From contig MU057701.1 in assembly GCA_013265495.1 (NCBI GenBank), forward strand, positions 1,178,001-1,242,000: a DNA stretch of 64,000 bases, written 5' to 3'. The translations under genes were made by a program, and so were the position numbers. Under the pieces are notes generated by a model. It was not told the origin of the DNA, ran no database searches, and was given only the letters and a program-made list of their open reading frames with translations. Source of the stretch: Vicugna vicugna. Its lineage: Eukaryota. Below are positions 40,007 through 63,070 of the stretch, in pieces (position 1 is the first letter of the stretch; each line of letters starts with the position of its first letter).

Positions 40007-40059
40007 TCAGAAAATGAGTTCAGAATAGACATATGTAGTTTTACAGTCATAACAGGCTT
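40007..40059 (-). CDS. MILR1: MILR1 last coding exon (exon extends to a donor at 39979)
   Basis: ttcag|AA GCC TGT TAT GAC...TAT GTC TAT TCT GAA CTC ATT TTC TGA. Confidence 0.9.
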
Positions 40060-40475: not shown

Positions 40476-40544
40476 CCTGATCTCTTGGTACCACCTGCCT
40501 GAACACAGGGGTGACATAATGTATCTCCTGGGAGTGTCCAGTCC
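40476..40544 (-). CDS. MILR1: MILR1 cytoplasmic exon (69 nt, ITIM-like)
   Basis: cccag|GG ACT GGA CAC TCC CAG GAG ATA CAT TAT GTC ACC CCT GTG...CAG G|gtgagc. Confidence 0.9.
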
Positions 40545-40671: not shown

Positions 40672-40728
40672 CATCTTGGGCTACAGGAACAGACTGCTTT
40701 GGTTCTAAGCGTGGCACAGATTCCTCAC
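40672..40728 (-). CDS. MILR1: MILR1 cytoplasmic exon (57 nt, MIR-derived)
   Basis: ttttacag|GT GAG GAA TCT GTG CCA...CAA GAT G|gtaagt; encodes GEESVPRLEPKQSVPVAQD. Confidence 0.85.
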
Positions 40729-41250: not shown

Positions 41251-41340
41251 CTGCTTGGTTTTCACAGATATTTGCGTATATTCCAGTTTCCATGGGTCTA
41301 TTTCCGTAGTCTCTGGGTACATTGTCTTTCATAGCTTTTC
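41251..41340 (-). CDS. MILR1: MILR1 cytoplasmic exon (90 nt)
   Basis: tgtag|GA AAA GCT ATG AAA GAC...CAA GCA G|gtgaga; encodes RKAMKDNVPRDYGNRPMETGIYANICENQA. Confidence 0.9.
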
Positions 41341-41799: not shown

Positions 41800-44700
41800 C
41801 CATACATTTAAGAAGATTGAAATCATGTCATACATCTTTTCTGACCACAGCAGTATAAGACTAGAAATCAACTACAAGAAAAAAACTGGAAGAAAAAAAA
41901 AGACAAACACATGGAGGCTAAACAATATGCTACTAAACAATCAAAAAGTTACTGAAGACATTAAAGAGGGAATAAATACCTGGAGACACATGAAAATGGA
42001 AGCACAATGATCCAAAATCTAAGGGGCTCAGCAAAAGCAGTTCTAAGAGGGAATTTGCAATACAAGACTACCTCAGGAAATAAGGAGAATCACAAATACA
42101 CAACCTAATCTTACATCTAAAGAAACTAGAAGAAAAAGAACAAACAAAACCCAAAGTTAGTGGAAAGGAAAGGAATAATAAAGATCAGAGCAGAAATAAG
42201 TGAAATAGAGACAAAAAGTAAACAATAGAAAAGGTCAATGGAACTAAGAGCTGGTTCTATGAAAAAACAAACAAAATTAATAAACCTTTAGCTAGATTCA
42301 ACAAGAAAAAAGAGGGCTCAAATAAAATCAGAAAAGAAAAAGAAGTTACCACTGACACCACAGAAATACGAAGGATCATTAAGAGATTACTACAAACAAT
42401 TATATGCCAATAAAATAGACAACCTAGAAGAAATGGATAAATTCATAAAGATGTACAATCTCCCAAGGCTGAATCAAGAAGAAATAGAAAATATAAACAG
42501 ACCAATTACCATTCAATATGAAATTGAATCAGTAATCAAAAAACTCCCAACAAAAGTCCAGGACCAGATGGCTTCACAGGTGAATTCTACAAAACACTGA
42601 AGAGGAAGGAATGCTTCCAAACTCATTCTTCGAGGCCAGCGTCACCCTGATATCAAAACCAGGTAAAGAAACCACAGAAAAAATTACAGGCAAATATTAC
42701 TGATGAACATAGATGCAAAAACCCTCAACAAAATGTTAGCAAACCAAATTCAACAATACATTAAAAGGATCATACACCATGATCAAATGAGATTTATCCT
42801 AGGGATGCAAGGATGATTCAGTATCCACAAATCAATCAATGTGATAACACCACATTAACAAGTTGAATAAAAATCATATGATCATCTCAATAGATGCAAA
42901 AAAGCTTTTGACAAAATTCAGCACCCATTTATAATTAAAAAAAACCTCTCAACAATGTGGGTATAGAAGGAACGTACCTCAACATAATAAAGGCCACATA
43001 TAACAAGCCCATGGCTAACATCATACTCAGTGGTGAAAAGGAGAAAGCATTTCCTTTAAAATCAGGAACAAGACAAGGATGCTCACTCTCACCACTTTTA
43101 TTCAGCATAGTATTGGGAGTCCTAGTCACAGCAATCAGACAAGAAGAAGAAAAAAGGAATCCAAATTGGAACAAAAAATATAAAACTTGTCACTGTTTGC
43201 AGATGACATGATACTATATATAGAAAATCCTAAAAACACCACCTAAAGACTATTAGAACTAATAAATGAATTCAGTAAAGTTTCAGGATACAAAATTAAT
43301 ATGCAGAAATCTGTTGCATTTCTATACACCAATAATGAACTCTCAGAAACAGAAATGAAGAAAATGATCCCATTTGCAGTTGCACCAAAAAGAATAAAAT
43401 ACCTAGGAATAAATCTAACCAAGGAGGTAAAAGAACTGTACTTAGAAAACTGTAAGACACTAGTGAAAGGAGTTGAAGATGACACAAACAAATGGAAAGA
43501 AATATCATACCCATGGATTGGAAGAATTAATACTGTTAAAATGACCATATGCCCCAAGGTAATCCACAGGTTCAGTGCAATCTCTGTCAAATTATCAGTG
43601 GGATTTCTCACAGAATTAGGACAAATAATTCTACATTTTATATGGAAACACAAAAGAACTTGAATAGCCAAAACAATCCTGAGAAAGAAGAACAAAGCTG
43701 GAGGTATCATGCTCCCTCATTTCTAACTATACTACAAAGGTACAGTAATCAACACAGTATGGTACTGGCACAAAAACAGACACATAGATCAATGCAACAG
43801 GATAGAGGGCCCAGAAATGAATCCACACTTATCTGGTCAATTAATCTACAACAAAAGAGATAAGAATATATGATGGGGAAAAGACAGTCTCGTCAATAAA
43901 TGGTGTTGGGAAAACTGGACATATGCAGAAGAATCAAACTGAACTACTTTCTCACACCATCTACAAAAATAAACTCAAAATGGATTTAAGACCTAAATGT
44001 AAGATCGGAAACCATAGAACACCTAAAAGAAAAATAGGAGTATGCCCCTTGACAGTGGTGTTAAGGGAAACAAAAGCAAAAATAAACAAATGGAACTACA
44101 TCAAACTTGCACAGTGAAGGAACCCATCAACAAAACAAAAGGCAGCCTACTGAATGGGATAAGATATTTACAAATGATATGTCTGGTAAGGGATTAATAT
44201 CCAAAATGTACAAAGAACCTTATGCAACTGAACATCAAAAAAAAAAACAATTAAAAAACAGGCAGAGGACCTGTATAGACATTTTCTAAATAAGACACAC
44301 AGATGGCCAACAGGCACATGAAAAGATGCTCAACATCACTAATCATCAGGGAAATGCAAATCAGAACCACAATGAGATATCTCCTCACACCAGTCAGAAT
44401 GGTTACCATCAAAAAGATAAGAAATAACAAGTGCTGGCAAGGATGTGGAGGAAAGGAAACTCTCGTGCACTGTTGGTGGGAATGTAAATCGATGCTTCCA
44501 ACTGTGTAATACAGTATGGAGGTTCCTCAAAAAAATTAAAAATATAATCCAGCAATTCCACTTCTGGGTATTTTTCTGAAGAAAACAAAAACACTAATTA
44601 AAAAAGATACATGCACACCTATGTTCTTTGCAGCATTATTTACAACAGCCAAGCTATGGAAGCAATGAAAGTGTCCATCAACAGATGAATAAATAAAGAA

Positions 44701-45210
44701 GATGTGATATCTGTATACAATGGAATACTATTCAGCCATTAAAAAAGAATGAAATATTGCCATTTCCAGCAACATGCATGGACCTAGAGGGTATTATGCT
44801 AAGTGAAATAAATCAGACAGAAGAAGATAAGCACCATGTGATTTCATTTATATGTAGACTCTGAAAAAGAAAACAAATGAACAAACAGAAAACAGAAACA
44901 GGTTCATACATACAGAGAGCAAGCCAGTGGTTGCCAGAGAGGAGGGGAATGGGTCTGAGGCGAGTGAAATAGGTGAGGGAGATTAAGAGATACAAACCTC
45001 AAGTTACAAAATAAATGAGTCACAGGGATGAAATGTACAGCCTGGGGTAGATAGTCAATAATACTGTAATATCTTTGTATGGTGACAGATGATAACTAGA
45101 CTTATGTTGGTCACTTTGTAATAGAAATTTGAAGCACTGTTGTGCACCTGGAACTAACATAGTGTTGTAAGTTAACTTCATTTTAAAAATGCTTTATGTT
45201 ACAAAAAAGT
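41800..45210 (+). mobile_element. 5'-truncated L1 (about 3.4 kb, decayed ORF2 and 3' UTR), antisense in MILR1 intron 5
   Basis: ORF2 fragments [23 protein letters not shown] and [12 protein letters not shown], with many stops and frameshifts. Possible degenerate TSD atgtatRagatg at 41788 and 45215. Confidence 0.93.
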
Positions 45211-46606: not shown

Positions 46607-46717
46607 TTGCTTTGTACTTTGGTAGCATCCACAATGCCAGGATTAGGATTATTACCATTAGCACCAGTAGTAACCCCGGAAGCAGTAGCTGCAGGCAGAG
46701 AGGACAGCTGTCTCCAC
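46607..46717 (-). CDS. MILR1: MILR1 transmembrane exon (111 nt)
   Basis: tctag|GT GGA GAC AGC TGT...AAA GCA A|gtaagt. Confidence 0.92.
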
Positions 46718-48298: not shown

Positions 48299-48583
48299 CT
48301 GTTGAGGGTATGGTGACAGGTTGACTGTATTTTGCATGGTCAGGCAATGTGTTTTTAGCTTCACACTTATACTCTTTCCCTTCTCCACTGTTATTGTTGG
48401 TTAAGTTAAATTCGGCAGGCTCCCTTACATTCTTGGAAATAGCTGGTGATATGGTGATGTTTTTTTCAAAGAAAGTATAATTGATGGGCAGAGAGCCATT
48501 GAATGAGATGCATCGCAGCATTATATATTGATCTGTTTTTGTTTGAATGACACTAATGTTCAGCACTGGTGCAGTCACTGGGT
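48299..48583 (-). CDS. MILR1: MILR1 Ig domain 2 exon (285 nt)
   Basis: tctag|AC CCA GTG ACT GCA...TCA ACA G|gtaaga; encodes LRCISFNGSLPINYTF...YKCEAKN. Confidence 0.93.
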
Positions 48584-51048: not shown

Positions 51049-51639
51049 GATCCAGAGAATCACTCAAAGATTTGATCAGTTAGCCAGGGCTCCCACATTT
51101 AGAAAACTCCAGCTACAATGTCACCTTATCAAAGTCACCTTCATGGGTAAGGCCAATGATGCTAGGTTGTGAGAGGCTTGGGGTGGGAAGATGGGAGAGA
51201 AAAATACAAAAATAATAAAATGTGGTTGGGTGGGAAGAGTGCTGGCCGATGGCCATTGCAAAGGGAGGGAGGTGGGAAGAGCCTGGGGCTTTGAAGACCC
51301 TTGCCATAGGGTCCAATGTTGATTCTAAGACTTATTTGAATCGTTAGAGAAAAAGTCATTTTTGCCTACACAATGAAAATCCTAGAAAAGATCTCAACAA
51401 TTTCCCAAATTGTTGATACAAGGCTTTTTGTCTTAGACAATCAGCCTATTATTTATTATTGGAAATAGCCAAAAATCTTTGGGAGAGAAAGTGAAATGGA
51501 ACTATTAAGAAATAGTATCTCAGTGACATACTCTCCAGGCTCTTGAGTGACTGTTAGCAAGCAGATCAGAGAGAGCATCCTGGGACAGGAAAGAATCCCC
51601 CAAATCACAGGCCCCCCAAGTAACAAGCACTCTACTTAC

Positions 51640-51909
51640 CAACAAATACGAAGTTGAACTCACGACTGTATTTGGAACAGTTAGAAACTTGGGCTTTGCA
51701 TTTGTACGGGCCCAAATCCTGGGCATCTGAGATCCTTAGGTTTAAAGTCATGGGTTCACCTTTTCTATCCTGGATTTCCAGGTGTTTCTCACCCCGAAAC
51801 AAAGAATAGGTGATCTGTAGTGATGTGTTCTGGTTGAAACAAGAGAGAGATACATTCTGACCCCTCACAACTGCACTCGTTTTTGAGTGCAAATTTGGAG
51901 AAGGGAATT
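51640..51909 (-). CDS. MILR1: MILR1 Ig domain 1 exon (270 nt)
   Basis: tccag|AA TTC CCT TCT CCA...TTT GTT G|gtaagt; encodes GQNVSLSC...GPYKCKAQV. Confidence 0.93.
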
Positions 51910-52099
51910 CTGGAAAACAAAATAACACAAAGAAAGTCCTTGTTAACATCCATTGATAATAACTCAGTGGTTGTCCAGCCACATTTTGTGGGTCATGGTG
52001 GTGGAGACCCTCTGTTCCTGGCAAAACTTCCACAGATGGGAAGCGGAGGGTGTTTTTGCCTGCACAACCAGGCTGAACAATGCGTGAGGAAAACTTAGG

Positions 52100-52640
52100 A
52101 CCTAGAGAGGCCCCCCCGCCAGTGAGAGATGGGTGGCCTTATCAAGCTCCTTTGCGCTGGCTAGGAACTGGCTGCCACTCATAGCTAGAACACCAGTTGC
52201 AGACAAGGCCACTCTGTGAGCATGTTGGATTGAGACAAAAACAAGTTGACTCCATAATCACGTCTGAATGCAGATGACGACATGAACATAGTCCAGAACA
52301 CACAAATGGCCCAATCTTCCTCTAAACTAGCCCATAGGAGTGACTGCTGCTTCTTTATTAGTCATAGCTTTTGCCTTGCGCTGCTCTTATCTTTTAGGAA
52401 TTACTGATACCCAACCATAGTGTTATATCTACCTCCTGAAAGAATCCAATTCAGAGTAAAGCCTGCTGCTTTGACTCTTCCTAACATCACCTCACACAAG
52501 TCCAAATCTTACCGGAAGACCTTTCCATCACCCTCTTGCTGGGACATCTCACGATTCTCATGCATGGTATGCAATTTCTCTCAAAACTCAGCTTTGTTCA
52601 ACTACGTGTGTGTCCCTGGTGATCTTTGGCTGAAGGACAT
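52100..52640 (+). mobile_element. ERV-type solo LTR relic (family not determined)
   Basis: LTR-like composition: agtgactgctgcttcttta...ttgttcaactac...ggtgatctttggctgaaggaca. Confidence 0.45.
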
Positions 52641-54870: not shown

Positions 54871-55422
54871 TAACAATGACCTAGGCTGGCAGTCACTGAT
54901 GGTTCACTATTCATCAGGTGCTTGTCTCAGTCTTGACAACCACCCTCCCAGGGAGGCTCTTTTATTATCCCACTTCATAGAGGACAGAAATTAAGCATAA
55001 AGGGGTTTCCTCAAGTGCCCAGGCTGCCAGCTAGAAAATGGTAGAACCAACGTTAGGGCCCCAACAGGCTAGCTCTATGAAGATAAACTGCCTCCCAGCA
55101 TATATTTCTAATGTTGCTTGAATTATTTTACGATGATTGTGTGTTTATTTTCTAATTTAAAAAACGACAACAGAGAAAGAACCACTTCATTGTAAAAAAC
55201 AATCTCAATATTTTGTCTCTGAGTCTCAGGAAAAATTCTCCAACCCTTTCCCTAAAAATCACTTCATTTTAAACAGTAGGTAATGGAAAAGACTTTCCTC
55301 TTTGGTTGTTCATCTCAAAGCATAGAAAAACCTGTTCACGAATTCTTGTGTTTACAGCCAGCCATCTCTCACCCTTTCTGTGAAAACAGCTTTAGTATGA
55401 GAGGGAAGTAAGTCAAACTTAC

Positions 55423-55618
55423 CATTTGTTTTTCTCATTCTCTTGCAATCCAGTGCTGCTTTTTGAACTGAAAGGGAGAAGAGGAACACGAGAAAACTCT
55501 TTTTCCACATGGCGTTTTGATTTGGAGATTGAAGCCTCAAAACGGTAAGTGAGCCTTGTATGTGACACAAGGGAAAAAAAATGACTCCAAAGAACAGTTT
55601 GTTCAGGAGGCCCCACAT
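55423..55618 (-). CDS. MILR1: MILR1 5' coding region (exon 1, in-frame intron-1 span, and exon 2 at 55467..55423)
   Basis: ORF 55352..55618 reads MWGLLNKLFFGVIFF...VQKAALDCKRMRKTN G|gtaagt. The acceptor ctttcag| before 55467 is present, but there is no consensus donor upstream of it. Confidence 0.75.
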
Positions 55619-55688
55619 TCTCCTGAGTGATGTCAGGGAGGAGAGTGAAGGAGGCGGGGTGGCACCCAGGCGGTATGTCGCTCAGAGA

Positions 55689-55696
55689 ACTTCCTC
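55689..55696 (-). promoter_or_regulatory. PU.1/ETS-like site in the MILR1 proximal promoter
   Basis: GAGGAAGT on the - strand about 70 nt upstream of the first ATG; motif match only. Confidence 0.4.
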
Positions 55697-57339
55697 CTTT
55701 TTGATCAAGTTAAAGAAATCAGAGTTATGTGGACAACCGTGATACAATATGACTGGTTGGGGTGACCTTGTGCTCCTCTCAGCAGAGAGAGATGTGACAG
55801 AGGTGCCTCTGATTCAGGCCAACTGGGAAGTTGCAGTGGGAAAATTAAAAAGTATTGTCTTTATGTAAACCCACCTGATCGTCTCTCTCTGGATTCGTCC
55901 CGTGTCAGAATGAATTGAATGAAAGTTTGGTTTAGTTTTGAGAAGCAGCATTGACTGTCCAGAGAGACACATGGAAACATGGTGGCAGAAATGCCAGATT
56001 GTGTTGAATGCTGGTTCCTAGGCCCCACCCCAGGTTTACTGGGAATGAAACCTGGGACTCTGAATTTTAACAAGGGACCCAGTGGTCTCAGAGTCTGAGA
56101 CCCGAAGTGACTTGTGATTCACTTCTACCCGATCCAGAATTCTCATGACTCTGCAAAATGTATGCCAAAGCAAAGCCACACATTTTGCTTCCCCCAGCCT
56201 GAAGTGGAGAGTAGGAAGTGGTAAGGGGTCCGAAGTGACAGGAGCTGTGACCAGGCTGGGCCGCTTGGGTTATTGATTCTTGTTGCCACCCAGGGTTGGC
56301 CCTGTCGGTCTCTTGCATTCCTGTGGACAGGTGTCCTTTCTGTGAGGAAGACAGGTCCCTGCCCAAGTACCCGTTCTTCCAGAACATCATCCAACCTCAA
56401 TATTAACTCACTCCAGGTGCTCCTTGCTCAGGCTTTCCAGGTCCCAGCCTGTGGTGGTCCTCATTCCCAACCCGACACCTGGCCATCACTGGGGGTCTGA
56501 CCAGATCCAGGGCCTGCTGCCGTCACCCCTATTTCCTCCTTGTCTGGCCACCACTGTCTGGAAGCAAATCATCTTATTTAGCCTTCAGTTCGTAAAAGGC
56601 CTTTTTTCCCTTCTAACGGTAGAAGTTACTCCTCAGGCACTGACTCTTCTAACATAGGTGGTACTTATCGATTGACGGTGATTTCATACTGTGATATTGG
56701 TATCCATTTCTTTCACCAGAGAAGAGGGAGGGAAAAAGCCCCACAAGTTTAATTGAGGTGGGATGACCCTCAATGCCAGAATTTCTGCTAAAGGAAATTG
56801 GAGGTTTCGTTTTTGAAACTTTCCACCAGCATCTCATCCACCCTGGCCTGAGTGGAGGGTGGAGCTGGGTTCCTGAGAATAGTCATGCCTGAGAGAACAG
56901 AGGGCCTTTCCGAAAAGCTGACGTGTCAGGGGCATTTCTGTGTGTGGTACTTTCAGCTGGGGCAGGAAGCTTGTAGACTGCTGCTTGGACACAAAAACAG
57001 CAAAAGAAACCAGAGGAAGAGCTCCTTAGAGCTGTTAGTAAACATTGCTAAGAGTACTTTAGTGAGGCCCTGGAAAAGGAACATAATTTGTCAAAGACTA
57101 CACAGTACATCAGAAGTGATGTCTCAAATGGAAAGGGAAAAAGTTCATCCATGGACCTGGCACATTCCTTAGGTCCCAAATCATGGCAAATCCGCATAGT
57201 CGTGGTCCACAGTGATTCACCATATTGATAAGCTTGATGACAATAAATATAGTCAAACAATAAAGTTGAGATTTCTGTTGTCTAAGATCTTTACACTGAT
57301 AATCTCATTTAATCCTTACAAAACCTCTATGAGGTGTGC

Positions 57340-58040
57340 ACAGGTATTATTAAAAATATTTAACAACCAGTAAAGTAATATGAATATATAACTCAATGCA
57401 TGGATCAAATATTTAAAAGTATATTCCACCACCCCTGCTTTATCTCTAAATAAACTAATCTATATTATAAAACTACTCAACAAGTGATACACATTTTTTT
57501 AATTGAAATATAGTCAGTTACAATGTGTCAGTTTCTGGTGAGTGATATAAATTTTTGAGCAAGTCATTTATAAACCTATTCTCATCATTTCCAAAATTGT
57601 GTTGATGTTTATAAATGGTTGGTGTCGTCTTTTGAGACAGGGCTCGCTGTCTGAGCTGTTCCAATGAATTCCTTGAAACTGGTGGCCATTGGATGATGTG
57701 TAGTCCCAATAAACTGACGATTTCTCTTCATGTCAATGATACTGTTCCTGGTGTTAAATCCTCAACCCCTGATGAACAAACCAATAACAGTGATAAACAT
57801 TTTAAATGTTCCATCCCTTATAATGCTGTTTGAAATTTTTCTATATCCAGTAGTTCTATTATCTTGTATTTCTAAATCACAAAAAATCATTTAATTCATT
57901 GGCTTAATTTCATTTATCCTTCCTCAGAACTTGACACATACCATTTGGTAAAGTGTCAGGATTCTACAAATTTACATGAGTTCTACAAATTTTAATGACT
58001 TTAGTAAATGAATTTAATTAATTAATTAATGCATTTATTT
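57340..58040. mobile_element. Possible hAT-Tip100 (Zaphod-like) DNA transposon relic
   Basis: Begins caggtattattaaaaatatttaacaaccagta, resembling the family terminus as I recall it. Confidence 0.35.
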
Positions 58041-58049
58041 TGCAATATC

Positions 58050-59400
58050 TTATTTTTTAAATTGAAATATAGTTGATGTACAATATTATATGTTACAGAT
58101 ATATAATATAGTAATTCACAATTTTTAAAGGTTATACTCCATTTATAGTTATTATAAAATATTAGCTATATTCCCCATTTTGTGCAATATATCCTTGTAG
58201 CTTATTTTATACCTGATAGTTTGTACCTTTTAATCCACCTCCATCTTGCCCCTCCCTCTTCCCTCTCCCCACTAGTAAGCACTAGTTCCTTCTCTACATC
58301 TGTGAGTCTGTTTCTTTTCTGTCACATTTACTAGTTTGTTGTATTTTTTTAGATTCCACATGTAAGTGATATCTTACAGTAGCTGTCTTTCTCTGACTTA
58401 TTTCACTTAGCATAATGCCCTCCAAGTCCATCCATGCTGTACACCAGGAACTAATATAACATTTTAAATCAACTGCACTTCAATTAAAAAGCAAACAACC
58501 AACCAGCCAACCCATTTAAAGTGTGGGCAGAAGACCTGAATAGACATTTTTCCAAAAGAGGAAATGCAGATGGCCAACAGGAACATGAAAAGTTGCTCAA
58601 CATCACTAATATCAGGGAAATGCAACTCAAAATCACAATGAGATTGTCTCACAGCCTGTCAGAATGGCCATCATCAAAAAGAACACAACAAATGATGGCA
58701 AGGATGTGGAGAAACAGGAACCCTTGTACACTGTTGGTAGGAATGCAAATTGGTGCAGCCACTATGGAAAACAATATGGAGGTTTCTCAAAAACCCAAAA
58801 ATAGAACCACCACATGGCCCAGCAACTCCACTCCTGGGCATATATTTGAGAAAAAACAAAAACATTAATTCAAAAAGATACATACAGCCTGCTATTAAAA
58901 GCAACATTATTTATAATTGCCAAGATACGGAAGTATCCTAAGTGTACATCAACAGATGAATGGATAAAGAAGATATAGCACATATGTGTAATGGAAAATA
59001 ACTCACCCATAAAAAAGAGGGATATTTTGCCATTTGTGGCCCTTCATTCACTTATTTTTTCACTTCAAAAAGCAGAATTTTATAACTGGCATAAGCATTT
59101 CCATTACATCAAAAACAACTGAATACCTAGAAATAAACTTAACCAAGGAGGTTACCTGTTCTCTGAAAAATGTAAAACGCTGATGAAGGAAATTGAAGAT
59201 GATGCAAAGATATGGAAAGATATCTTGTGCTCTTGGACTGGAGGAATCAACATTATCAAAATGGCCGTACTACCCAAAGCAATCTACAGATCCAATGCAA
59301 CCCCTGTCAAAATACTCACAACATTTTTCATAGAACTAGGACAAACAATTCCAAAATGTATGTGGAACCATAAAAGACCTCAAATTGCCAAAACAATCTT
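58050..59400. mobile_element. Cluster of L1 fragments in alternating orientation
   Basis: L1 3' end on - (58050-58440), L1 3' region on + (58440-59040), ORF2 fragment KEIEDDAKIWKDILCSWTGGINIIKMAVLPKAIY on + (59100-59400). Confidence 0.8.
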
Positions 59401-61370
59401 TTGTAGGTCTTTTTTTCTCTTTCTTCTTTTTGTTTTCTTTTCTTATGGTTTGGTGACTAGAGAAGTTCCTTTAACATTTGTTGTAAAACTGGTTTGGTAG
59501 TGCTGAATTCTTTTAGCTTTTGTGTATCTGTGAAACTTTTGATTTCTCCATCAAATCTGACCAGAAGCCTTGCTGGATGCAGTATTCTTGGTTGTACGTT
59601 TTTCCCTTTCATCACTTTAAATATGTCATGCTACTCCCTTCTGGCCTATAGAGTTTCTGCTGACAAATCAGCTGATAACCTTATGGGAGTTCCCTTGTAT
59701 GTTATTTGTTGCTTTTCTCTTGCTAATTTTAATATTTTCTCCTTATCCTTAATTTTTGTCAATTTGATGACTATGTGCCTTGGTGTGTTCCTCTTTGGGT
59801 TGATCCTGTGTGGAACTCTCTGTGCTTCCAGGATTTGGGTGACTGTTTCCTTTCCCAAGTTGGATAAGTTTTCCATTATTATCTCTTCAAAAATTTTCTC
59901 AGGTTCTTTCTCTCTCTCTTCTCTTTCTGGGACCTCTATAATGTGAATACTAGTGCACCTCATGTTGTCCCAGAGTTCTCTTAAACTATCCTCATTTCTT
60001 TTCATTCTTTTTTCTTTTTTCTGTTCTGCAGTAGTAATTTCCACTAATCTGTCTTCTAGCTCATTGATCTGTTCTTCTGCCTCATTTAGTCTATTCTTGG
60101 TTCCTTCTAGTGCATTACTCATTTGCGTGATTTTATTCTTCAACTCTGTTTGAGTATTCTTTATACTTTCCAACTCTTTTCTAAAAACTTCACTCTATGA
60201 ATCTATACTCCTCTTGAGTTCTCTGAACATCTTCACCATCATTAAACTCTCTTGGATAAACTGCCTATGTTCACATCACTTATTTCTTCTTCTGGGATTT
60301 TATTTTGTGCCTTGGCCTGGAAGATACTCGTCTGGCACCTCATATTGTCTATCTTTCTATTTGTATTTTTAGGTAGGTTAGTTACATTTCTTGACCTTGG
60401 AGAAGTGGCCTCTGTGGGAGATGTGCTATGCATCCCAGCAGGACACTCCTTTCTTGTCACCCAAGGGTCAGGGTCCAGCTGGTCCCAGTGTAGAGTCTGG
60501 CCTGTATTTGTGGATTGCTTCCACAGGTTTTGGGATTGTTGTTTTCTTATTTCTAGTATCTTCCCCCTGGTAGATGAGGCTGGACTAGAGACTTAAGCAG
60601 GTTTCCTGGCAGGAGGAGGAGTTGGTGCCTGCCCACTGCTGGGTGAAGCTTGGTCCTGGATGTCTGGTGGGTAGGGCCATGTGTAGATGCATCTGTGGCT
60701 CAGGAAGTCTGCTGATGGGTGGGGCTGTGTTCCCACCCAATCTGTTGTTTGGCCTGATGCTTGTTAGCCCTTAAGCCTTCAGGCTGTTGGGTGGGGATGG
60801 GTATTGGTGCTAATGATCCGATCAAGATGTCAGCCTCCAGGAAAGCTCATGTAAGATGAACACTCCCATAATGTCTGCCACCAGCTTTTATGTCCCGTGG
60901 GTGAGCTGCCACCATCCCCTACCTCCCCAGGAGATTCCCCAAAACCAGCAGGCAGGCCTGGCCCAGGTTCCTATGAAATCACTGCCTCTGTCCTTGGACC
61001 TGGCACATGCGAGATTCAGAGTATGCTTCCCAAGAGAATGAAGTCTCTGTTTCCCCCAGTCCTGTGGGGCTCCTGGAGTTAAGCCCCACTGGCCTTCAAA
61101 ACCAGATGTCTGGGGTCTCCTCCTCCTCCCAATGCTGGAGCCCCGGGCTAGGGGGCCTGACATAGGGGTTAGACCTCTCACTCCTGTGTGAGGGCCTCTG
61201 TGACTTATTCTTCAGCTTGTGGGTTGCCCACCTCGGGGGTATGGGGCCTCAAGCACGCCCCTCCTACCATCCCACTGTGGTTCCCTCTTAATGTTTCCAA
61301 TTGAAGATCTTTTTTGCTAGGTTTCAAGGTTTTGTAGTTGCAAAGAGAGGCAAACTTGGGGTCCTACTTG
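59400..61370 (-). mobile_element. L1 5' UTR and ORF1 remnant
   Basis: ORF 59646..60173 is recognisable L1 ORF1p (coiled coil, then LRELWDN...TPRHIVIKL...YKGTPIRLSADLSAETL), with GC-rich 5' UTR upstream. Confidence 0.9.
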
Positions 61371-61589
61371 ACCAGAAATCCTTAACTTAATTATTTTTAC
61401 TTTGCCCTCAAACTACAAATGCATTTTTATATAATAAATTTTTAAATTATTTAAAATATATTTTTCTCTTGGAATTGATACTTTATTTTGATTTATTACA
61501 AGAAGTCATGCCATATTTCTTCATTTTTATAGAATCTTCCACTTATGTTTCATTTATCAAATTAGTCTGATAAATCTAAATGTATTAAA

Positions 61590-63070
61590 ATAGCCACATG
61601 AAAAGATGTTCAACATTACTAATCATCAGGGAAATTTAAAATCAAAACCACAATGAGATATCACCTCAGAATGGCTATCATACCATCAAAATGATAACAA
61701 CTAACAAGTGTTGACAAGGATGTGGAGAAAACGGAACCCTTGTGCACTGTTGGTGGGAATGTAAATTGGTGCAGCCACTAAGGAAAACAGTATGGAGGTT
61801 CCTCAAAAAATTAAAACTATCATATAATACAGAAATTCCAATTCTAGGTGTTTTTCTGAAGAAAACAAAACACTAATTTGAAAAGATATATGTACCTCTA
61901 TGTTCATTGCAGCATAATTTTTTTTTATTAAAGTATAGTCAGTTTACAGTGTGTCAATTTCTGGTGTACAGCATAGTATTTCAGTCATACATATACATAC
62001 ATGTATTTGTTTTCATATTCTTTTTTATTATAGATTACTATAAGATACTGAATATAGTTCCCTGTGCTATACTGGAGAATCTATTTTATATATAGTTGTT
62101 TATCTATTTTATATATAGTAGTTAGTATTTGCAAATCTCTGTCTCCCAATTTATTCCTTCCCACTCTCTTTCCCCCAAGTAACCATATTTGTTTACTATG
62201 TGTGAGTCTGTTTCTGTTTTGTAGACAAGTTCATTTGTGTCTTTTTTGTTTTTTTTTTAGATTCCACATATCATATGGTATTTTTCTTTCTCTTTCTGGC
62301 TTATTTCACTTAAAATGATGATCTCCACGTCCATCCATATTGCTGCAAATGGCATTATTTTATTCTTTTTATGGCTGTTCAGTATTCCATTGTATAAATA
62401 TACCACAGCTTCTTTATCCAGTCATCTGTCAATGGACATTTAGATTGTTTCCATGTCATGACTATTGTGTATAGTCATTGCAGCATTATTTACAACAGCC
62501 AAGCTATGGAAGCAATCTAAGTGTCCATTGATAGATGAATGGATAAAGAAGATGTGGTATATATACCCAATGGAATATTACTCAGCCATAACAAAGAATG
62601 ATATCTTGCCATTTGCAACAACATGGATGGACGTAGAGGGTATTATGTTAAGTGGAAAAGTCATACAGAGAAAGACAAAAACTGTATCATTTCACAGATA
62701 TGTGTTATCTAAAAAACAAAACAAATAAACAAACATAACAAAACAGAAGCAGACTCATAGATACAGAGAACAAATTGCCAGATTGTTTGAGGGGAGTGAT
62801 TGCCAGAGGGGAGTAGGTGGGGAGGTGAGTGAAATAGGTGAGGCAGAATTAAGAGGTACAAACTTCCAGTTATAAAATAAATAAGTCACATGATATAATG
62901 CACAGTGTAGAGAATATAGTCACTAATATTGTAATAACTTTGTATGGTGACATGGCAACTAGCCTTAACCTGGTGATCATTTTGTAATGTATACAAATGT
63001 AGAATCACTATGTTGTACCCAAGAAACTAACATAATATTGTAAGTCAATTATACTTCAATTCTAAATTAT
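61590..63070 (+). mobile_element. L1 3' end with a nested antisense L1 3' end (61921-62474)
   Basis: The host L1 resumes after the insert; TSD TCATTGCAGCAT at 61904-61915 and 62475-62486. Confidence 0.85.

Follow-up and report, generated by a model that had tools for sequence, protein, structure and literature searches.

Allergin-1, the product of MILR1, is known in the isoforms L, S1 and S2, which according to the accessible part of PMC3792105 differ in their Ig-like domains and not in the leader; the words exon, intron and leader are absent from the accessible text of PMC9695092 and PMC3792105. Judged from titles and listings, the literature searches found no paper on the MILR1 leader, on intron 1 or on the camelid arrangement. 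A 376-aa read-through form of the camelid protein (XP_006199565.2, XP_010982290.2) and a 340-aa form (XP_006199565.3, XP_010946981.3) are already present in RefSeq/GenBank. The automated allergin-1 models of camelids and other mammals are predictions, and the names returned mention neither a lost donor nor two leaders.

The retained-intron isoforms of HLA-G are comparable because, in the available text of PMC5664004, a retained intron is likewise made coding and a terminus of an immune inhibitory molecule is changed. In HLA-G, however, the intron contributes an epitope at the C-terminus, or else the signal peptide is missing, whereas the acceptor tract of MILR1 provides a putative signal peptide that is conserved across placental orders. 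Exitrons, as described in the part of PMC4484396 consulted, share with MILR1 intron 1 a mixture of intron and coding-exon character; they lie inside coding exons and about half of them are multiples of 3. Unlike them, the MILR1 intron is 92 nt long, with strong conservation as code confined to the last 43 nt; it brings a start codon of its own, and its camelid donor is absent. Exitron status was considered for the camelid intron 1 and ruled out, because it has no donor and splicing at the old site would cause a frameshift. Thymine-rich non-coding DNA yields hydrophobic codons at no cost (PMC7005711, accessible part), a ready route to a leader such as the one described here (leader B), but that work concerns new yeast genes arising from intergenic DNA, whereas leader B is an old leader of an existing gene. 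The MILR1 arrangement is one that works like an alternative N-terminus obtained from a retained intron.

The MILR1 gene and its lost exon-1 donor

MILR1 spans 15.6 kb of the minus strand in the window (the whole stretch of 64,000 nucleotides that was analysed), and all features given below lie on that strand. An earlier note on this DNA had called the gene MILR1 (allergin-1), and the call holds, with 373 of 376 residues identical to alpaca XP_006199565.2 and dromedary allergin-1 as the top named match (93%) in a protein search with the window gene. The encoded protein has two Ig-like domains, a transmembrane segment and a tail with tyrosine motifs, as does its human orthologue NP_001078892.1 (P0203). 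A sequence-based structure search with the MILR1 protein gave FCRL5 as the sole match and was uninformative on the leader.

Exon 2 (55423..55467, 45 nt, donor GTAAGT by sequence) is followed by exons 3 and 4 for Ig-like domains 1 and 2 (51640..51909 and 48299..48583), exon 5 for the transmembrane segment (46607..46717), the cytoplasmic exons 6 (41251..41340), 7 (40672..40728) and 8 (40476..40544), and the last coding exon with the C-terminal tyrosine motif and the stop (40007..40059). Exons 2-9 have GT-AG sites at all junctions and an intact frame. When the exons were joined by coordinates, ATG 55618 gave a protein of 376 aa and ATG 55510 one of 340 aa, with 0 internal stops; the joined protein showed 3 differences from XP_006199565.2, 2 from XP_006199565.3 and 15-16 from the Camelus models. 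These counts make a South American camelid the most likely origin of the window. Two regions of the window, about 42000-45000 and 58400-62700, are presumably LINE-1 fragments, judging from their appearance.

The old coding exon 1 (leader A) lies at 55560..55618. Its ATG 55618 has A at -3, and the exon has homologues in the exon-1 leaders found in human P0203, sloth P0346 and seal P0254. The earlier note's proposal that the donor of this exon has been lost, with read-through into exon 2, was borne out. The homologous site, CAT/ACAAGG at 55559, carries a dead donor, ACAAGG (55554..55559), located by gapless alignment with felid read-through models, in which the cat GT at this place is implied from protein. 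A total of 20 GT/GC dinucleotides in 55700-55468 were matched to the 9-position donor consensus; no GT or GC in the 151-nt span reached at least 5/9, whereas the seven real MILR1 donors score 5-8. These 151 nt, from ATG 55618 to the acceptor at 55467, are stop-free and in frame with exon 2, and the 92-nt homologue of intron 1 (55468..55559) is open in the exon 2 frame. The exon-2 acceptor is intact, with 0.94 pyrimidines in the 18 nt ahead of its AG, the highest value among the 8 AGs in 55640-55460. Up to the old donor, camelid exon 1 measures 59 nt and is now in phase 2, so that splicing there would lead to a frameshift and a 34-aa product. Weak sites that would restore the frame are found at 55566 (343 aa), 55554 (347 aa) and 55611 (328 aa).

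The normal exon-1 splice is missing from all 13 camelid models in the cluster, which include no member from a transcript assembly (7 with leader B, 5 with A+B and 1 with neither). Over residues 1-150, alpaca XP_006199565.2 is identical to the window. The read-through is shared by dromedary XP_010982290.2, which differs at 2 of the first 36 residues (34/36 identical). Since the dromedary and the window have the read-through in common, the donor was lost before the two camelid genera separated. The camelid-specific part may consist of this donor loss together with a change of phase by which ATG 55618 came into frame.

Other sequences lie upstream of exon 2. An exon at 56412..56464 with the donor GA/GTGAGT at 56411 occurs in three dromedary GenBank models, and the starts of P0002 and P0121 were reproduced from window coordinates. 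In these predicted models the exon (56464-56412) is joined either to 55535, which keeps the frame, or to 55467, which does not. The first junction, in two of the models, uses an internal AG (55536..55537) as acceptor, with 55535 as first exon base in frame with leader B. A putative acceptor-like tract with its AG (55623..55640, pyrimidine fraction 0.78) lies directly upstream of ATG 55618. The region 57521-57770 resembles the predicted first exon of the whale models P0026 and P0173, and is probably an unrelated coding remnant taken up by gene finders.

Donor states outside the window were deduced from protein and not from DNA. The cat models, gapless against the intron frame of the window, start with Met-Tyr-Gly where the window has Ile-Gln-Gly, which points to AT/GTAYGG in cats versus AT/ACAAGG here, that is, a change of GT to AC at +1/+2. 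Feliform models (P0265-P0269, P0288-P0300) start 16-18 codons upstream of leader B, and the cat ATG appears to straddle the exon-1 donor. A mole model has Ile-Lys at the donor place, so GT would be missing there too. In deer models exon 1 is joined in frame to the intron, and the Cervus-like contig ORF P0281 differs from them at the join; because of this conflict, both a genomic donor deletion as the explanation of the deer models and a start of the ruminant contig ORFs at the GTG of an intact donor were dropped. The deer models P0275 and P0277 and the ruminant contig ORFs P0281, P0155 and P0005 have different residues right before the same intronic codons, a difference that could stem from a deletion, from another junction or from initiation at a non-ATG codon.

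Age and conservation of leader B

Leader B (55445..55510) starts at ATG 55510 (GCC ATG, G at -3), comprises 14 intronic codons and runs on into exon 2. The earlier description of the pyrimidine tract as coding for the hydrophobic core of a plausible leader from this ATG is correct: the polypyrimidine tract and AG of the exon-2 acceptor (55468..55487) double as codons of the h-region. Two lysines after the Met form a basic n-region, the hydrophobic core has at least 7-8 residues, and the best 8-residue hydropathy is 2.9, versus 1.9 for human leader A. Cleavage may occur after residue 14 or 22, according to small residues read by eye.

Such an appearance is not rare next to acceptors. A start codon, a basic residue and a hydrophobic core preceded an acceptor-like site in 7 of 825 site-by-phase cases over the window, a count that includes leader B itself and the exon-3 acceptor of MILR1, and a signal-like look alone is therefore weak evidence. 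It is the conservation of leader B rather than its hydrophobicity that makes the case real. At the exon-3 acceptor, too, an in-frame ATG and a hydrophobic tract occur, with an open frame of 168 codons into exon 3 (51635-52138); in sheep-like contigs, ORFs of 190 aa continue across this point, with only the last 7 codons matching.

The proposal that the intron became coding sequence, or a new signal peptide, in this lineage did not survive comparison with other mammals, as leader B heads allergin-1 proteins across Laurasiatheria and Afrotheria and in one rodent, and orthologues using the same stretch as coding sequence were thus found. Among 338 allergin-1 proteins classified by regular expression (one whale A being a false positive), 145 have leader B, 114 leader A, 18 both in tandem and 61 neither; most B proteins are automated models, which would start at the leader B ATG wherever intron-retaining RNA occurs, functional or not. 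A further 34 proteins were read by eye (19 B, 13 A, 2 neither). Leader B occurs in pig, cattle and other ruminants, hippo, whales, rhino, horse, dog and other canids, cats, seals, bats, mole, porcupine, manatee, aardvark and tenrecs. Leader A occurs in primates, rodents other than porcupine, horse, mustelids, bears, seals, pangolin, a peccary model, elephant and three xenarthrans (sloth, armadillo and tamandua). Leader B was not seen among 44 primate, colugo and treeshrew proteins. The presence of both leaders across placental groups indicates that both go back to early placentals.

The 130 artiodactyl proteins comprise 82 with B, 18 with A+B, 28 with neither and 2 with A, one of these a false positive of the regular expression and the other the peccary model. 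With leader A alone in 1 real case among 130, the A splice may be minor or lost beyond camelids. Most models from toothed whales (P0007, P0020, P0315-P0325) are about 319 aa long, and P0007 is without the stretch coded by window exon 7. For manatee and for elephant (P0339/P0341 and P0340/P0357) there is an allergin-1-like model beside the allergin-1 model, which suggests that the gene was duplicated in that group.

The 14 intronic codons are identical at 14/14 (one gene) and 13/14 positions in manatee, at 10/14 in tenrecs and, read by eye, at 9/14 in aardvark, and the diverged versions of bats, tenrecs and aardvark keep the ATG, the basic residues and the hydrophobic core. Mean identity to alpaca over 21 non-camelid species was 0.86 for leader B versus 0.68 for Ig-like domain 1, the species having been selected for possession of leader B, which inflates its conservation. 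The values for Ig-like domain 2 (18 species) and the cytoplasmic tail (16 species) were 0.77 and 0.65, leader B being the best-conserved part of the protein in this comparison. The purine-rich distal 7 codons were as conserved as the tract, with 6-7 of 7 residues identical in 11 of 11 species. At the exon-3 acceptor, used as a control, only the last 7 codons matched (7/30) in the single contiguous row, which alone was used because 5 of the 6 rows for intron 2 are gene models that may take their distal residues from elsewhere in the gene, from other exons. The tract alone thus does not explain the conservation of leader B. An origin of the two leaders by tandem duplication is at best marginal, the observed score being reached by 41 of 1000 and 149 of 1000 DNA shuffles and by 43 of 500 protein shuffles.

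Full-length B proteins are encoded on contigs of 1.2-2.2 kb that are cattle-like (P0019), canid (P0025), buffalo-like (P0280, 29 contigs) and seal-like (P0257); later-starting versions were found on horse-like (P0014), pig-like and fruit-bat-like contigs. Given their length against a gene of 15.6 kb, these contigs almost certainly represent mRNAs of relatives in which the intron end is retained while the rest has been spliced. The spliced leader A is found on pangolin contigs of 1.2-1.5 kb. Both leaders were found on tails with 0 differences in seal (P0254/P0255 vs P0257) and horse (P0017 vs P0016/P0014). Scans of metagenome contigs for MILR1 mRNA or DNA of relatives gave 35 pattern matches with 0 confirmed, and 0 matches in a second scan.

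A probable ancient pair of leaders and the camelid loss of one arm

The reading that we favour, and regard as reasonably probable, is that the two alternative leaders of MILR1 date from early placentals, and that camelids lost the exon-1 splice and most likely use leader B. Leader A would result from splicing of exon 1 over the intron of about 92 nt to exon 2, and leader B from an ATG 43 nt inside the 3' end of this intron, the acceptor pyrimidine tract supplying the hydrophobic core. Leader B would be made when the intron end stays in the mRNA, be it by retention, by a start site inside the intron or by an upstream acceptor. The change of the donor GT to AC and of the exon 1 phase would have preceded the split between Camelus and South American camelids; with both changed, leader A would no longer be spliced normally. 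The camelid receptor would most likely reach the surface via leader B, as a 340-aa precursor from ATG 55510, and ATG 55618 would serve as an upstream start in the same frame, with a possible extension of 36 aa. For this species we infer the mRNA structure, the choice of start codon and the signal-peptide function of leader B.

When the window intron is read in the usual exon-1 phase, a stop appears about 26 nt before ATG 55510, so wherever exon 1 is normal, the first ATG would open a short upstream ORF on the retained mRNA. No TATA motif was found in 55460-55760. Cores of GGAA, which we take to be ETS-like, are present at 55694, upstream of ATG 55618, and at 55506, within the conserved codons of leader B, where a DNA element could explain part of the conservation.

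Translation of the main camelid product from ATG 55618 is considered unlikely, although several observations speak for it. A 376-aa precursor would carry two tandem hydrophobic segments, the first cut near residue 22 and the second either kept as an N-terminal extension or cut again. This ATG, in frame and with A at -3, would be the first met by a scanning ribosome if transcription starts upstream, and both camelid genera keep its frame free of stops, differing at 2 of 36 residues. The first segment equals leader B in hydrophobicity (2.91), the second falls short of a membrane span (19-residue mean of at most 1.1), and the dromedary RefSeq model keeps 376 aa. However, the newer RefSeq models of alpaca, Bactrian camel and wild camel have 340 aa, and the spacer between the leaders is only 0.57 identical (5 species). 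Similar in-frame read-throughs occur in deer and mole models, but protein data show in-frame cases only, so their recurrence is no sign of selection.

We regard it as improbable that leader B is not a working signal peptide, with a role in splicing or as a promoter behind the conservation of the intron end, and with the B proteins as annotation by-products of intron-retaining RNA. The chance rate of signal-like peptides given above and the GGAA core at 55506 would fit this explanation, as would the position of the yUnAy branch motif, none of which lies closer than about 80 nt to the acceptor; the evidence for leader B function is at the level of sequence and not of protein. Against it, camelids keep an intact 8-exon frame with no usable exon-1 donor, and the features of a leader persist in the diverged bat, tenrec and aardvark versions.

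More doubtful still is a continued production of leader A in camelids through a cryptic in-phase donor, either the GT at 55566 (TGT/GTCACA, 55561..55566, a candidate by sequence) or the GC at 55554. Both would restore the frame, and the 343-aa product of the former has the human length, but both score below 5/9 and 0 of the 13 camelid models use either.

A misassembly of the T8 run or the donor bases in an otherwise ordinary gene is very unlikely and effectively refuted: despite the homopolymer run at the critical place, the same read-through frame exists in the dromedary, another genus, and 41 of 41 sampled 31-mers (55380-55800) were recovered in 14 DNA runs (11 samples, 5 studies, 4 organism labels), all of them possible sources of this same DNA, with six RNA runs, containing only 0.05-0.20 of the sampled words, given no evidential weight.

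Implications for the MILR1 N-terminus

Of what had been concluded from the window, the read-through itself, with a lost donor and an in-frame leader, is retained, and the dating is not, leader B being far older than camelids. The camelid protein ends were already in automated annotations; the reading reached here is of an ancient design with two leaders and a camelid loss of one arm. On this reading the gene is a clear case of a splice signal that doubles as protein code, and of a back-up leader thanks to which a splice site can go while the gene survives. MILR1 encodes an inhibitory receptor of mast cells and myeloid cells, and no new receptor or pathway is revealed. For its N-terminus in livestock, dogs, cats and bats, the structure of the human and mouse genes is a poor guide.

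The favoured reading of two old leaders could be widened, tentatively and with less than even confidence, to an exon-2 acceptor that has been dual-coding since the placental ancestor, with intron 1 splicing optional for surface expression, retention tuning the receptor level and lineages repeatedly dropping one arm. Losses of this kind, of the donor in camelids, in a mole and perhaps in deer, and of leader B in primates, would then be natural experiments on the conversion of an intron into coding sequence.
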